Source: Escherichia coli
Lineage (GTDB): Bacteria > Pseudomonadota > Gammaproteobacteria > Enterobacterales > Enterobacteriaceae
Length of the DNA stretch: 64,000 nucleotides
Assembly (NCBI RefSeq): GCF_048403405.1
Contig: NZ_CP183129.1
Direction: 5' to 3' (one strand)
In this document: positions 2,984 through 35,664 of the stretch, one piece after another
Layout of the letters: every line of letters begins with the position of its first letter
How positions within the stretch are numbered: the first letter of the stretch is position 1
Translations under genes and position numbers: made by a program
Notes under the pieces: model-generated
What the model saw: only the letters and a program-made list of their open reading frames with translations
The model's database searches: none
What the model was told of the DNA's origin: nothing

Positions 2984-3021
2984 AACGTTTTTCCGGCGTT
3001 TCTCAACGCCGGAATAGCGTA

Positions 3022-4275
3022 TTAATGGCTTTCAGCCCAGGCTCTTTCTATCTCTTCCGCCAGAATCTTCACTCCCGCCTCAATTTTCTCCGGCTCCGGC
3101 ACGTAGTTCATGCGCATACATTGATGTGTATGTGGCCACGGTTTATCCAGCCCTGGGAAGAAGTTGTGCCCCGGCACCATCAGCACGCCCCGTGCTTTCA
3201 GGCGCTGGTAGAGCTGCTCGGTCGTAATTGGCAAATCCTTAAACCATAGCCAGAGGAAAATGGCTCCTTCCGGTTTATGAATCAGGCAGCGATCTTCCGG
3301 TAAATAGCGGCGAATGATAGCGATAGTTTCCTGAACACGCTGGTAGTAAAACGGTTTGATGACTGTTTCAGACAGGCGCAGCAGATCGTTACGCTTAATC
3401 ATTTCACACATCATCGCCGGACCAATACCGCCAGGTGCCAGGCTGATAATGCCGTTCATATTGGTGATGGCGGTGATGATTTTTTCATTGGCGATGATAA
3501 TGCCGCAGCGGGAGCCAGGTAGCCCCAGCTTAGAAAGACTCATGCACAGTACGATATTCGGATTCCACAGCGGGCGCGCTTCGCTGAAGATGATACCCGG
3601 GAACGGGACGCCATAAGCGTTATCAATCACTAGCGGAATGCCGTGTTGATTCGCCAGCGCGTCAAGCTTCAGCAACTCTTCGTCAGTAATCACATTGCCT
3701 GTTGGATTCGTCGGCCGGGAGACGCAAATCATCCCGGTTTCTTCGCCAATATGCAGATGCTCAAAATCGACGTGGTATTTAAACTGGCCTTCCGGCAGCA
3801 GTTCAATATTCGGACGCGCAGAGACAAACAGATCTTCTTCCAGTCCGGCGTCAGCGTAGCCAATGTATTCCGGTGCCAGCGGGAACAGCACTTTTTTGAC
3901 CCGACCATCGGCACGGCGTCCGGCAAACAGATTAAATAAGTAGAAAAACGCGCTCTGGCTGCCGTTTGTTAGTGCAATATTCTGTGGTTCGATATCCCAA
4001 CCCAACTTCTCGCGCAGCATTCCGGCAAGCAGTGTGAGTAGCTCCGTTTTCCCCTGTGGACCGTCGTAATTGCACAGTGCATCAGTCGCTTTGCCACTTT
4101 CCAGCATGTCGGTCAGTAGCGTCTGGAAGTAGTCCTGCATTTCCGGGATCTGCGCTGGATTACCGCCGCCGAGCATAATCGCGCCAGGCGTGCGTAAACC
4201 GTCGTTCAGATCTTCCATCAGCAGCGTAATGCCGGAGTGGCGGGTAAATTTGTCACCAAAAAGGGAGAATGTCAT
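3022..4275 (-). CDS. avtA: valine-pyruvate aminotransferase (417 aa)
   Basis: ORF extends to 4380, but the internal ATG at 4273-4275 (MTFSLFGDKF) gives the recognised 417-aa AvtA; class I aminotransferase motifs. Confidence 0.88.
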   Translation of the reverse strand: MTFSLFGDKFTRHSGITLLMEDLNDGLRTPGAIMLGGGNPAQIPEMQDYFQTLLTDMLESGKATDALCNYDGPQGKTELLTLLAGMLREKLGWDIEPQNIALTNGSQSAFFYLFNLFAGRRADGRVKKVLFPLAPEYIGYADAGLEEDLFVSARPNIELLPEGQFKYHVDFEHLHIGEETGMICVSRPTNPTGNVITDEELLKLDALANQHGIPLVIDNAYGVPFPGIIFSEARPLWNPNIVLCMSLSKLGLPGSRCGIIIANEKIITAITNMNGIISLAPGGIGPAMMCEMIKRNDLLRLSETVIKPFYYQRVQETIAIIRRYLPEDRCLIHKPEGAIFLWLWFKDLPITTEQLYQRLKARGVLMVPGHNFFPGLDKPWPHTHQCMRMNYVPEPEKIEAGVKILAEEIERAWAESH

Positions 4276-4452: not shown

Positions 4453-6483
4453 TCACTGTTGCCCAGCCCAGATGACCAGCACTTTATCGTCGCCATGCTC
4501 ACGAACAAAGCCGTAGCCCTGCTTCAGCGAAAGTGTCGTTTGTTTGCCCTCGCCAATTGCGGGATGGCGGGCGCGGAACTGGCTGATTTTCTGCCAGTGC
4601 GCGACGCTGGCGGCAGATTTACCGCTAACATCCTGCCAGTTCATATCCGAACGCGTACCTTGCAGCGGATCCGAACCGGTGGGGCCGAACGGACGCGAGG
4701 ATTCATCACCATAAAAGATTTGTACCGCGCCTGGCGCTAATAATAATAACTCTGCTGCTTTGTCGCCCCCTTCACGGAACAGGCGGGTATCATGCGATGA
4801 GAGGTAGCTCAACACGTTGAAATCCTGCAATTTCTCCGCCATTTGCTGCCAGGTCGTATCCATCTGCGCCAGACAATCGACTGCTTTAGCCGCCTGCTCC
4901 TGATAATCGAAATTGATCATCGCATCGAAGCCGTGGCGATAGTAATCACTTTGCATCACGCCGTGGCCCCAGGCTTCACCGGTCATCCAGAACGGTTTGT
5001 CATCTAATGTTTTGTCGGGGTTAGCTTTTTTCCATTCGCGAAGTGCGGCGCTGGCTTCGGATTTCAGTTGCTGCCAGGCGGGCAACTCAACATGTTTGGC
5101 GGTGTCGACCCGAAAACCATCAATCCCATAGTCGCGGACCCACTGACTTAACCAGTGGGTTAAGTAATCGCGAGGGGTAAAGCCGTCGATGACTTTAGCG
5201 TGGGTATCCGTTTTGTTTTTATAGAACACCGGCAGACCAGAAGCGGTCGTTGATTCGGTTTTGATATCCGGCAAAAAGGCCAGCGACATAGTGAGATCGT
5301 CGAATCCAGGATTGTCGTAATCGCCGATATCGGTTCTGATCCAGTTTTTTCCCCACCATTTATCCCAGCCTGTTTTGTCGCTGAAATTAATGTAATCGTT
5401 AAAGCTATGCCAGGTTTGCCCGGCGGCAGGTTTCCAGTCGCTCCAGCGTTCACCCAACGTTTTTTTCACTTCGTCACCAGAAAGATATAACGCGCCAAAC
5501 TGATACTCCTGCATATCCGCCAGCGTGGCATAGCCAGTGTGGTTCATCACGACATCAAAGAGAATACGAATACCGCGCTGATGTGCGTTATCAACCAGCG
5601 TCCGTAGATCGGCTTCGCTGCCCATATTGGCATCAAGATTCGTCCAGTCCTGTGTGTAATAACCGTGGTAGGCATAATGCGGGAAGTCGCCTTTTGTACC
5701 GCCGCCGACCCAGCCGTGAATTTGCTCAAATGGGGCGCTTATCCATAAAGCATTGACGCCCAACTGCTTGAGGTAATCCAGTTTGTTGGTCAGGCCGAGT
5801 AAATCACCACCGTGGAAAGTGCCAATTTCTGCCATACCGTCTTTATGACGTCCGTAACTCTGGTCATTACTGGGATCGCCGTTTTCGAAACGATCTGTCA
5901 GCACAAAGTAAACTGTGGCGTTATGCCAGTCAAAAGGGGCAGGGGCGTCAGTTTCTGCCCGTTCCAGCAGGAGTAAACCGTTGCTGGTGGCAGCGGGTTG
6001 TAACGTTATTTGACCGTTCTTCACTATCGCAATTTGCTGGCTGTAATAATCCCGGACTGCGGCTCCCTCCGGAAAAGTGGCGCTGACATCCAGTGTGAGC
6101 GGTAATCCATCCCATTTCGGGCATTCACGGACCAGGCTTGCTACCGGTTCGACGGCGTTCTGGATGGAAATCATCAATGTTGGTGTACCGGAGCGGGTGT
6201 CTATTTGCAGTGTATATTCGCCGTCCCTGAACAATCGCCATTGAGGCGGCGTGTTGCTACAAGGTTGCAGGGAAAGCATCTGATTGAGTTTTATCGCATC
6301 CACAGGCTGCCAGCACTGTTGGTCAAAATTTAGCGTTAGTGGACGCGTACCTTTGGGCAACTGCGCGTGGCTGACAAATGTTCCCGTCCCCTGTTCGCTA
6401 AAGGCGGGAAACCCCGGAGAAGTCCAGCTGGCGGCAACGGCGAAGCCAGGAAGGAGTGTCAGAAAACAGGCGGCGAGTTTCAT
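4453..6483 (-). CDS. malS: periplasmic alpha-amylase (676 aa) with signal peptide
   Basis: 676-aa ORF, N-terminal signal peptide MKLAACFLTLLPGFAVA, GH13 alpha-amylase motifs. Confidence 0.9.
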   Translation of the reverse strand: MKLAACFLTLLPGFAVAASWTSPGFPAFSEQGTGTFVSHAQLPKGTRPLTLNFDQQCWQPVDAIKLNQMLSLQPCSNTPPQWRLFRDGEYTLQIDTRSGTPTLMISIQNAVEPVASLVRECPKWDGLPLTLDVSATFPEGAAVRDYYSQQIAIVKNGQITLQPAATSNGLLLLERAETDAPAPFDWHNATVYFVLTDRFENGDPSNDQSYGRHKDGMAEIGTFHGGDLLGLTNKLDYLKQLGVNALWISAPFEQIHGWVGGGTKGDFPHYAYHGYYTQDWTNLDANMGSEADLRTLVDNAHQRGIRILFDVVMNHTGYATLADMQEYQFGALYLSGDEVKKTLGERWSDWKPAAGQTWHSFNDYINFSDKTGWDKWWGKNWIRTDIGDYDNPGFDDLTMSLAFLPDIKTESTTASGLPVFYKNKTDTHAKVIDGFTPRDYLTHWLSQWVRDYGIDGFRVDTAKHVELPAWQQLKSEASAALREWKKANPDKTLDDKPFWMTGEAWGHGVMQSDYYRHGFDAMINFDYQEQAAKAVDCLAQMDTTWQQMAEKLQDFNVLSYLSSHDTRLFREGGDKAAELLLLAPGAVQIFYGDESSRPFGPTGSDPLQGTRSDMNWQDVSGKSAASVAHWQKISQFRARHPAIGEGKQTTLSLKQGYGFVREHGDDKVLVIWAGQQ

Positions 6484-6804: not shown

Positions 6805-7629
6805 ATGATTTTGACTCCCATACGACGATATGGGGCGATGATTCTTATGTTACTCACTCTGGTGTTTTCGAGTGAGGTGTTAGCGAAGACGCACACAACA
6901 ACAGCGAGTCAAAAGTCCCACTTAACTAAAGCTAGTAATAAACAGGTAAGCAGTAAACAAGAGTATTCTCGCAATAGTGCAAAGAGTAGTTCACTTCCTG
7001 ATTTGCGAAAATACCCTTCCGGAACACCAAGGAAAAAGGCGTTTCTCCGGACTGTAATGCCTTACATTACCAGCCAAAATGCGGCCATTACTGCGGAACG
7101 TAACTGGCTCATTTCAAAACAGTATCAGGGCCAATGGTCACCTGCTGAGCGTGCGCGTCTGAAAGACATCGCCAAACGCTACAAGGTGAAGTGGTCTGGT
7201 AATACGCGAAAAATCCCGTGGAATACCTTGCTTGAACGCGTAGACATTATCCCTACCAGTATGGTGGCGACGATGGCTGCAGCAGAAAGCGGTTGGGGAA
7301 CGTCAAAGCTGGCGCGCAACAACAACAATCTGTTCGGCATGAAATGCATGAAAGGACGTTGTACCAATGCGCCGGGTAAAGTGAAAGGGTACTCACAGTT
7401 TAGTTCTGTCAAAGAATCGGTGAGCGCCTATGTCACTAACCTGAATACGCACCCGGCTTACTCTTCGTTCCGTAAATCGCGTGCACAGCTGCGTAAAGCG
7501 GATCAGGAAGTGACTGCCACAGCGATGATTCACAAGCTGAAGGGCTACTCGACCAAAGGGAAGAGTTATAACAACTACTTGTTCGCAATGTACCAGGATA
7601 ACCAACGGTTAATCGCGGCGCATATGTAA
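6805..7629 (+). CDS. bax: Bax protein (274 aa), putative glucosaminidase-domain protein
   Basis: 274-aa ORF with signal peptide; synteny between malS and xylR. Confidence 0.8.
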   Translation: MILTPIRRYGAMILMLLTLVFSSEVLAKTHTTTASQKSHLTKASNKQVSSKQEYSRNSAKSSSLPDLRKYPSGTPRKKAFLRTVMPYITSQNAAITAERNWLISKQYQGQWSPAERARLKDIAKRYKVKWSGNTRKIPWNTLLERVDIIPTSMVATMAAAESGWGTSKLARNNNNLFGMKCMKGRCTNAPGKVKGYSQFSSVKESVSAYVTNLNTHPAYSSFRKSRAQLRKADQEVTATAMIHKLKGYSTKGKSYNNYLFAMYQDNQRLIAAHM

Positions 7630-7643
7630 TTGCATTTCCTCGA

Positions 7644-7678
7644 GCCTTATCCGACTTGCCAGTCGGATAAGGCTTTTG
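7644..7678 (+). terminator. rho-independent terminator after bax
   Basis: Perfect 12-bp inverted repeat gccttatccgac / gtcggataaggc with 6-nt loop followed by TTTTG. Confidence 0.6.
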
Positions 7679-7680
7679 CT

Positions 7681-7714
7681 CGCATCAGGTGGTTGTGCTG
7701 AGTTACCTGATGCG
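7681..7714. repeat. REP-like palindromic element between bax and xylR
   Basis: Inverted repeat cgcatcagg ... cctgatgcg containing the REP-type motif cctgatgcgacgc. Confidence 0.4.
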
Positions 7715-7736
7715 ACGCCGACAATTCTCATCATCG

Positions 7737-8915
7737 CTACAACATGACCTCGCTATTTACATCGCGATACTCTTTTGGCGTCGTGTCATATGCTTTTTTA
7801 AAAACAGAGTAGAAATATTGCAGCGATGGATAACCGCACATTTGCGATATCTCATTGATCGACAAGGTGGTTGAAATCAGCAGACTGCGCGCTTTCTCCA
7901 GCTTCTCGGCATGAATCATGGCATGGATGGTTTCCCCCACCTCTTCTTTAAAACGCTTCTCAAGATTGGAGCGCGAGATCCCGACCGCATCCAGTACCTG
8001 ATCCACTTTAATCCCTTTACAGGCGTGATTACGAATGTAATGCATGGCCTGAATAACGGCGGGATCGGTCAGCGAGCGGTAATCTGTTGAGCGCCGTTCA
8101 ATGACGCGAACTGGTGGGACCAAAATCCGCTGTAGCGGCATTTCTTCTTTATCTAATAATCGATGCAACAGTTTTGCCGCCTGATAGCCCATTTGCCGTG
8201 CGCCCTGAGCGACCGAAGAAAGGGCGACACGCGACAGATAGCGGGTCAGTTCTTCGTTATCGATGCCAATCACGCATAATTTTTCCGGTACGGGAATGTG
8301 TAGATGTTCACATACTTGCAGAATATGCCGCGCCCGGGCGTCAGTAACGGCAATAATCCCGGTTTGCGGTGGCAGCGTTTGTAGCCAGTCTGCCAGCCGA
8401 TTTTGCGCGTGTTGCCAGTTCTCTGGCGCGGTTTCTAACCCCTGATAAACCACTCCGCGATACTTTTCTTCGGCGACAAGCTGACGAAATGCATATTCGC
8501 GTTCAGTGGCCCAACGTTTACCGCTTGATTCCGGAAGACCATAAAAAGCAAAGCGGTTAACGCCTTTCTCTTTTAAATGCAAAAATGCGCTTTCAACCAG
8601 CGCATAGTTATCGGTGGCAATGTAATGAACGGGTGGGTAACTTTCGGCAAGGTGATACGAGCCACCAACCCCAACAATGGGGACGTCGACATCAGCCAGC
8701 GCTTGCTCGATTTGTTTGTCGTCGAAGTCGGCAATGACGCCATCTCCTAACCAGTCCTTGATTTTATCAATGCGGGCGCGGAAATCTTCTTCAATGAAAA
8801 TATCCCATTCCGATTGTGACGCCTGTAAATATTCCCCTACGCCTTCTACTACCTGCCGGTCATAGGCTTTATTGGCATTGAACAGTAATGTGATGCGGTG
8901 ACGTTTAGTAAACAT
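7737..8915 (-). CDS. xylR: xylose operon activator, AraC family (392 aa)
   Basis: 392-aa ORF; periplasmic-binding-like N-domain plus C-terminal AraC HTH; adjacent to xylFGH. Confidence 0.9.
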   Translation of the reverse strand: MFTKRHRITLLFNANKAYDRQVVEGVGEYLQASQSEWDIFIEEDFRARIDKIKDWLGDGVIADFDDKQIEQALADVDVPIVGVGGSYHLAESYPPVHYIATDNYALVESAFLHLKEKGVNRFAFYGLPESSGKRWATEREYAFRQLVAEEKYRGVVYQGLETAPENWQHAQNRLADWLQTLPPQTGIIAVTDARARHILQVCEHLHIPVPEKLCVIGIDNEELTRYLSRVALSSVAQGARQMGYQAAKLLHRLLDKEEMPLQRILVPPVRVIERRSTDYRSLTDPAVIQAMHYIRNHACKGIKVDQVLDAVGISRSNLEKRFKEEVGETIHAMIHAEKLEKARSLLISTTLSINEISQMCGYPSLQYFYSVFKKAYDTTPKEYRDVNSEVML

Positions 8916-16968: not shown

Positions 16969-16977
16969 TTCACATAA

Positions 16978-17010
16978 GCCCGGTCAGTCCAATGTGACCG
17001 GGCTTTTATT
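16978..17010 (+). terminator. bidirectional rho-independent terminator between yiaA and wecH
   Basis: Stem gcccggtca / tgaccgggc followed by TTTTATTT; overlaps the wecH stop codon. Confidence 0.6.
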
Positions 17011-26634: not shown

Positions 26635-26700
26635 GCTTCTCTCCATTCACTGATAAGGCGATCACCTTAGCCTGAAATATGATGAAGGAAAACTGAAGAA

Positions 26701-26728
26701 TGCCAGGTGATTTCTGCATCACCTGGCA
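26701..26728 (-). terminator. hairpin downstream of yiaD
   Basis: tgccaggtgat / atcacctggca 11-bp stem with 6-nt loop. Confidence 0.4.
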
Positions 26729-26737
26729 TGAAAGGGA

Positions 26738-35328: not shown

Positions 35329-35664
35329 AATTCGAAATGCCTGCTCAGCGAGCAGGCTTTTTTGCATTTGTAGCTCATGAGGATGAGAACCTCCGGGGGC
35401 GGGGAGGTTCGACTCGAGCGAAGCGAGAGAACGTTGCGCCAGCAACGGCCCGCAGGGCGAGCCACGAAGTGGCGAGTAATCCTCTATCACCGACCAAATT
35501 CGAAAAGCCTGCTCAGCGAGCAGGCTTTTTTGCATCTGCAGCCCATGAGGATGAGAACCTCCGGGGGCAGGGAGGTTCGACTCGAGCGAAGCGAGAGAAC
35601 GTTGCGCCAGCAACGGCCCGCAGGGCGAGCCACGAAGTGGCGAGTAATCCTCTGGCACCGACCA
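35329..35664 (+). repeat. two tandem 168-bp direct repeats after proK, each with a terminator-like hairpin and a copy of the tRNA-Pro 3' end
   Basis: Unit 1 35329-35496, unit 2 35497-35664, about 95% identical; each has gcctgctcagcgagcaggcTTTTTT and ends in aatcctct(a/g)(t/g)caccgacca. Confidence 0.85.

Follow-up and report, generated by a model that had tools for sequence, protein, structure and literature searches.

In the model associated with Newbury and Higgins, and with the 2012 work of Peters, REP stem-loops reportedly protect the 3′ ends of mRNAs while Rho terminates transcription downstream. Between the genes bax and xylR most other Enterobacteriaceae have a compact form of gene end: a bidirectional terminator in which a stem of 8-12 bp stands between an A tract and a T tract and serves both convergent genes. 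REPs themselves are abundant, with a reported 600 or so in the 4.6 Mb of the Escherichia coli K-12 genome, and in clusters of the BIME-2 type z2 and y units are arranged in tandem in a copy number that varies between strains (PMC3333891). A conserved GTAG tetranucleotide at the REP hairpin's foot is required for binding and cleavage by TnpA_REP (PMC3333891, PMC3479197), and one published model has Rho end transcripts downstream, with exonucleases trimming them back to stem-loops or REPs (Dar and Sorek 2018, PMC6061677). REPs that lie less than 16 nt from a stop codon have also been reported to lower translation (cited in PMC12306157). The short spacer examined here, between the convergent genes bax and xylR, has features of each of these systems, and we suggest that it be classed as the decayed remnant of a BIME and not as an active member.

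The window, by which we mean the whole 64-kb stretch of E. coli DNA that was analyzed, carries malS (4453-6483, − strand), bax (6805-7629, + strand), xylR (7737-8915, − strand), and xylH; the bax coordinates come from the list of open reading frames together with the way in which RefSeq annotates E. coli records that are identical or nearly so, those of xylR from the list of open reading frames. The bax stop codon, TAA, occupies 7627-7629, and that of xylR, TAG on the − strand, occupies 7737-7739. Between them lies a spacer of 107 bp (7630-7736), exactly the gap given by a sequence-only reading that preceded this analysis, and the whole of the REP-derived element is contained in it, at the 3′ ends of both genes.

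Two perfect palindromes follow each other in the spacer. The base of hairpin 1 (7643-7674, + strand) lies 13 nt beyond the bax stop codon; its arms, 7643-7656 and 7661-7674, are 100% complementary over 14 bp and enclose the loop TGCC, and the whole folds at about −25 kcal/mol. It is the longest perfect inverted repeat of the 64-kb window. The sequence-only reading had a perfect stem of 12 bp at this place; it was right about the perfection of the hairpin and 2 bp short on its length. The two arms hold GCCTTATCCGAC, a REP tail motif, and the complementary GTCGGATAAGGC. Directly after the hairpin, on the bax sense strand, comes a weak U tract (TTTT, 7674-7677, then GCTCG; K-12 has TTTTT), with no matching A tract on the xylR side. 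Palindrome 2 (7680-7715, not assigned to a strand) has arms of 11 bp, 7680-7690 and 7705-7715, again 100% complementary, separated by a linker of 14 nt (7691-7704), and would form a stable hairpin on either strand (about −23 and −20 kcal/mol). The REP-type motif that had been noticed in this second palindrome, cctgatgcgacgc, is indeed present in the palindrome 2 region, at 7706-7718.

Whether these sequences belong to the REP family was examined with consensus sequences for y, z1, and z2 REPs, which were validated by a 97-100% match to known REP loci in K-12 and other Escherichia; the consensus also agrees with an oligonucleotide for the y REP that is given in PMC3479197. Canonical REPs from other loci, 13 in number, served to build an nhmmer profile, and separate profiles were made from z2 units only and from y units only. 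With the 13-REP profile the best match of the entire window falls at 7664-7689 (E 0.003), and the y-only profile places its best match at 7664-7686 (E 0.056). A semi-global consensus scan of both strands gives a y score of 10 (z = 3.9) at 7658-7698. These matches, together with comparison with the locus L007 and with a rare E. coli allele described below (type 2), in both of which an intact y REP occupies the same position, define a decayed y-like unit in GTAG-first orientation, REP2 (7661-7691, + strand). Hairpin 1 takes its right arm from the tail half of REP2, and palindrome 2 takes its left arm from the head half. A second unit, REP3 (7705-7733, − strand), is a z2 REP present as an inverted copy on the + strand. 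The z2-only profile finds its best match in the window there (7733-7706, E 0.01), the consensus scan has its top z2 score of the window at 7698-7740 (17, z = 5.9), and an intact ortholog exists in E. whittamii. The head of REP3 is intact, its centre is decayed, and a 21-bp deletion, seen in comparison with E. whittamii and Escherichia sp. E1V33, has cut short its tail and taken away its foot.

This arrangement suggests how the two palindromes arose. Hairpin 1 is, we propose, the tail-to-tail junction of two REP units and not the stem-loop of any single REP, and palindrome 2 is in the same way the head-to-head junction of REP2 and REP3. The earlier linking of the second palindrome with REP elements holds for the origin of its sequence; in structure the palindrome joins the heads of two inverted units and is not a REP's own palindrome. 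The stable stems at this site form between units, not within them. Neither unit of the window has the GTAG foot of a REP; that of REP2 is lost (GCCA at 7658-7661, with GTTG or GTCG in other Escherichia). Nor does either retain the imperfect palindrome of its own, with a central mismatch and at about −21 kcal/mol, that characterizes a REP: the units fold at −4 to −10 kcal/mol (REP2 alone −6.3/−4.7, its own stem nearly gone; REP3 alone −4.1/−10.5), and the consensus y and z2 REPs fold at −20.9 and −21.9 kcal/mol. A CTAC at 7737-7740 was considered as a foot of REP3 that would supply the xylR stop codon, and was rejected. E. whittamii and E1V33 have the tail GCCTGG followed by 21 bases and only then CGCTAC, with CGCTA conserved 21 nt past the REP tail in both; because E. 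coli carries the 21-bp deletion relative to these two, the match is coincidental, and on this comparison CTAC is read as the leucine and stop codons of xylR, not as a REP foot.

A search of the 64-kb window with head patterns, tail patterns, the consensus scan, and the REP profile found no canonical REP, only the decayed cluster at 7643-7733. Simple head and tail pattern searches return just the reported motif, at a level expected by chance. The membership of the spacer in the REP family, a consensus search for which had been named as the possible refutation of the REP-type claim, is carried by the window-best profile matches (E 0.003 to 0.056), the intact z2 ortholog in E. whittamii, and a canonical y REP in the K-12 spacer, and the consensus search came out in its favor, if modestly. 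The RefSeq K-12 record that was examined has no REP features, even at a known REP locus near 5565-5670. In Rfam, 7643-7712 (− strand) gives a match to naRNA4 (RF02564) that is below threshold, at 16.5 bits against a gathering score of 59.5 (E = 4.9). By megablast, stretches of 66 and 101 nt from the spacer are present in one copy per genome; intact related units match more places per E. coli genome, with medians of 8 for the K-12 y REP and 5 for the E. whittamii z2 REP.

The sequence-only reading had advised comparing strains for variation in REP copy number, and such variation exists. Among 5,426 complete E. coli genomes, three structural alleles were found, of 107, 195, and 108 bp. The short allele, that of the window (107 bp), is carried by at least 3,557 genomes, which match a 101-nt query over at least 80% of its length with constant length and 91-100% identity. 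The long allele of K-12 (195 bp) occurs in 1,698 genomes and was 100% identical in every match listed. The type-2 allele (108 bp) occurs in five genomes, R32_14_1F among them; it has a y unit directly after hairpin 1 and lacks the T run. In one further genome, that of strain 2017.02.04CC (L004, NZ_AP027754.1), an IS1 lies within hairpin 1, matching window position 7666 onward, and the xyl operon is deleted, the deletion running from xylR through part of yiaA/yiaB; this is a single case in which the spacer served as a site of insertion or deletion. About 160 genomes match neither the short nor the long query. ECOR29, the one divergent example that was checked, has the short layout, and the others are probably divergent short alleles that lack a shared 28-mer.

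The K-12 spacer (L001, 4159-4353, − strand) is 88 bp longer than that of the window and contains an additional z2+y pair, a canonical y REP (GTAGGTCGGATAAGGCGTTCACGCCGCATCCGACA) preceded by a degenerate z2 REP (GCCTGAAGCGTTGTTGGTGCGTTTTATCATGCCTGG). Its array begins with a decayed inverted unit and a linker, continues with z2 and an inverted y, and ends with another linker and z2; the window has one unit fewer. The extra unit is 82-86% identical to BIME-2 copies elsewhere. A MAFFT alignment suggested that the window allele derives from the K-12 form by deletion between two GTCGGATAAGGC repeats. We rejected this origin because the linker at 7691-7704 shares homology with the long alleles' linker 1 and fits it better (14/23 against 13/27, by eye); the product of a deletion between these repeats does exist, as a separate rare allele. 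The variation among short alleles (91-100% identity over the 101 bp at 7636-7736) is well above the divergence of the flanking genes, and the long allele is uniform in the matches listed, a pattern that suggests a long form that is young or has spread recently. A near-identical long form is found in Escherichia sp. MOD1-EC7003 as well. The E. whittamii and E1V33 alleles were sought among the complete E. coli genomes and not found there.

A search for Bax among species-representative genomes yielded 80 loci, in nearly all of which bax and xylR are convergent neighbors. In Enterobacter, Kosakonia, Leclercia, Trabulsiella, Kluyvera, and others, spacers of 31-55 bp hold a conserved bidirectional terminator, AAAAACGCCTTCC-N4-GGAAGGCGTTTTT. 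This compact layout of A tract, GCCTTCC-N4-GGAAGGC, and T tract (the spacers of L029-L084, for example L034 at 6823-6867) is that of most other Enterobacteriaceae. The spacers of Citrobacter and Salmonella have varied REP fillings in its place. All Escherichia share the hairpin 1 stem, GCCTTATCCGAC/GTCGGATAAGGC, in spacers that in the other species measure 68, 128, 195, or 206 bp. E. whittamii has the layout of the window with an intact z2 REP as the right-hand unit (ACCTGATGCGACGCTGGCGCGTCTTATCATGCCTGG), and in L007 the right arm of hairpin 1 continues straight into a full y REP. At the E. albertii locus (L008, 6826-7110) there is no xylR beside bax; hairpin 1, the head of REP2, the linker, and the z2 head are kept, after which the spacer turns to unrelated AT-rich sequence, so the breakpoint at which E. 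albertii lost xyl would lie inside the REP cluster. From the distribution of these layouts we conclude that at the Escherichia bax-xylR site the older terminator appears to have been replaced by a REP cluster.

A second difference in the presence of REPs was seen elsewhere in the window. Directly behind the hairpin TTCCGGCGTTTCTCAACGCCGGAA, four further species of Escherichia have a complete BIME-1 of about 113 bp, made up of a y REP, the long linker AATTCAATATATTGCAGAAAT, and a z1 REP (L005 2118-2217, L052 2118-2216, L008 3977-4075, and the matching site in L007). This BIME-1 is missing from this strain at window position 3021-3022.

The sequence-only reading regarded hairpin 1 as the terminator of bax. 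Its stem is strong and conserved, but the U tract is only 4 nt long, a terminator consensus scan of the window, which needs 5 T in 8, does not call it, and no K-12 3′ end maps to it. The Term-seq data of Adams et al. (PMC7815308 supplements), which cover three growth conditions, contain no 3′ end between K-12 positions 3736100 and 3736399; they represent the long allele only, under conditions in which bax and xylR are poorly expressed. According to the same published data, transcription on the strand of bax meets a Rho termination region at 3736077 (−), which is 80 nt inside antisense xylR; reads upstream and downstream of it number 451 and 54 in untreated cells and 583 and 295 with bicyclomycin (PMC7815308). 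Searches of the literature on bax/xylR terminators turned up nothing relevant. Hairpin 1 is most likely the 3′ stem-loop of the bax mRNA, either a partial terminator or a barrier to exonucleases; as an intrinsic terminator it would be leaky at most. On the xylR strand only a protective role is plausible, because neither hairpin is followed there by U residues. At 13 nt from the bax stop codon, hairpin 1 also falls within the range of less than 16 nt noted above and, by analogy, could damp the translation of Bax.

The 5′ part of bax has strong 3′ ends of its own in the data of Adams et al., at K-12 3737166 and 3737011 (−), with 25,474 and 228,364 reads; by offset from the ends of the bax coding sequence these correspond to about 6816 and 6971 in the window. 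In RefSeq a small open reading frame upstream, baxL, is annotated as putatively regulating translation. It may therefore be that most transcription of bax ends well short of the spacer.

Could the palindromes have arisen without any REP, simply as chance inverted repeats in a short intergenic spacer? Neither stem is backed by covariation, as such an origin would have it, and yet both are far beyond chance. Only five perfect inverted repeats of at least 11 bp (loop 3-20) occur in the 64-kb window, and two of these sit here within 75 nt; in 30 dinucleotide shuffles, repeats at least that long averaged 0.13 per 64 kb, and not one reached 14 bp. The folding z-scores of a 114-nt spacer RNA are −5.5 (+ strand) and −6.1 (− strand). 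Since the shuffle statistics are joined by conservation of hairpin 1 across the genus, a chance origin is already refuted, and we give it practically no credence. (The three further perfect inverted repeats, of 11-12 bp, are at 35503-35529, 26700-26729, and 16976-17005; the first, AAAAGCCTGCTC-AGC-GAGCAGGCTTTT, resembles a bidirectional terminator in form.) Another proposal is that palindrome 2 is a functional element under selection: it would terminate xylR, bind a protein, or belong to a small RNA. Proteins known to bind BIMEs include gyrase and IHF (PMC3333891), the RNA hairpin would be stable on either strand, the 11-bp arms are perfect both in this strain and in O157:H7, and E. albertii has one compensatory change, in the loop-closing pair. 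That change is the only one, however, among eight distinct sequences in which 90.9% of positions are paired and four pairs are broken somewhere, and the stem is mismatched without compensation in common E. coli alleles (TUM14697/Ecol_743, GN02270, and the 2014C-3011/ECOR29 class). The palindrome is not present as such in the long allele, no U tract follows it on either strand, no promoter-like sites occur within 7300-8000, no Rfam family reaches threshold, and the K-12 spacer is without any mapped 3′ end. We regard a selected function for palindrome 2 as highly improbable; it looks like a structural by-product, in the main, of the layout of the cluster.

Hairpin 1 gives a different impression. 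Its stem is present in every Escherichia allele, and among 13 Escherichia sequences 96.2% of its positions are paired, with seven pairs invariant and five altered on one side only, mostly to wobble; the loop and the 5′ flank, unlike the stem, are variable. There are no compensatory changes among the 13. On this evidence hairpin 1 looks constrained and palindrome 2 does not. A rival account has hairpin 1 descend directly from the bidirectional terminator of the enterobacterial ancestor (AAACGCCTTCC-N4-GGAAGGCGTTTTT), its stem having lengthened, its likeness to a REP tail being coincidental, and only the sequence downstream of it deriving from REPs. Hairpin 1 and that terminator occupy the same place after the bax stop codon, they have in common an outer stem of GCCTT...AAGGC followed by a T run, shared by Enterobacter, Kosakonia, Leclercia, Kluyvera, and others, and the REP profile gives only a weak match to hairpin 1's left arm (E 7.4). 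Against such descent, the loop and right arm in L007 and in the E. coli type-2 allele run unbroken into a full y REP (GTTGGTCGGATAAGGCGTTCACGCCGCATGCGACA), with no T run in either; the K-12 right arm and y REP are direct repeats, 87 bp apart; and a REP tail contains AACGCCTTATCC, so that a likeness to the old terminator is expected either way. Unbroken descent from the terminator accordingly strikes us as unlikely. Somewhat less doubtful, though still tentative and in our judgment more apt to be wrong than right, is a sequence of events in which a REP pair in Escherichia displaced the ancestral terminator and was reshaped on one side only, the inverted y centre becoming a T run right behind the tail-to-tail hairpin, with the hairpin then held by selection on the bax-sense RNA. 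Selection on that strand is suggested by four independent C-to-T changes in the left arm, which preserve U-G pairing in the RNA of the bax sense alone; changes of this kind occur in 2014C-3011/ECOR29, GN02270, and E. albertii.

The account that we favor, and consider quite probable, is that the spacer holds a fossil cluster of the BIME-2 type, whose hairpins form between units, whose number of units shifts by recombination, and in which hairpin 1 serves as the 3′ stem-loop of bax. In such a cluster units would stand in alternating orientation: a possible tail remnant, the decayed y-like REP2, and the truncated z2 REP3. Where neighbors are inverted their adjacent halves could pair, tails giving hairpin 1 and heads palindrome 2, while the stems within the units decayed. 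Unequal recombination between direct repeats would change the number of units and could yield the one-unit form of the window, the two-unit form of K-12, and a second one-unit form. The anatomy of the cluster, its REP ancestry, its polymorphism in unit number, and its replacement of an older terminator come from the comparisons above; the function of its hairpins we infer. Hairpin 1 with its short U run would act as the 3′ stem-loop of the bax mRNA and a leaky intrinsic terminator, and on transcripts that read through, to be ended by Rho inside antisense xylR, it would block 3′-5′ exonucleases. On the opposite strand, both hairpins may likewise protect the 3′ end of the xylR mRNA.

These findings matter little beyond annotation, but they carry some practical lessons. 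An apparent “terminator plus palindrome” pair where convergent genes of E. coli end can consist of junctions between decayed REP units, and a perfect hairpin followed by a short U run needs 3′ end data before it is labeled a terminator. Clusters of REPs gain and lose units between strains and can take over from an older bidirectional terminator. The three alleles differ in whether they have the T run and would make a convenient natural test set for REP-derived hairpins at the 3′ ends of mRNAs.

Set beside the described systems, the cluster is closest to BIME-2. It lies in a spacer between convergent genes, its y and z2 units alternate in orientation, and the number of units at this one locus differs between strains (alleles of 107, 108, and 195 bp). 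It differs in the decay of the window's units, which have lost the GTAG foot, most of the internal imperfect stems, and, by deletion, the z2 tail; in being a single-copy sequence by megablast; and in that its stable hairpins are junctions between units. By analogy with the published requirements for GTAG and for mismatches, the REP-associated transposase would probably no longer act on the cluster. The resemblance to naRNA4 (the REP325-derived RNA of RF02564) is a weak one of sequence and structure that comes from shared REP ancestry, and at a score under the gathering threshold the spacer is not a member of that family.

Like REPs that act as protectors of 3′ ends, the hairpins are stable stem-loops placed just after convergent stop codons, with a K-12 Rho region shortly downstream on the bax strand and no U tract after either hairpin on the xylR strand; they differ in that no processed 3′ end has been mapped to the bax-xylR hairpins in the K-12 data, and in the short U run of hairpin 1, which means that it may terminate some transcripts directly. 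The enterobacterial bidirectional terminator has the same position, the same outer stem (GCCTT/AAGGC), and a T run on the bax side, but the Escherichia hairpin has instead a REP-like stem of 14 bp, only 4-5 T, and no A tract, and for want of that tract xylR would have lost its intrinsic terminator. Taken together, these comparisons place the bax-xylR spacer as an ordinary one, of a kind that is already known.
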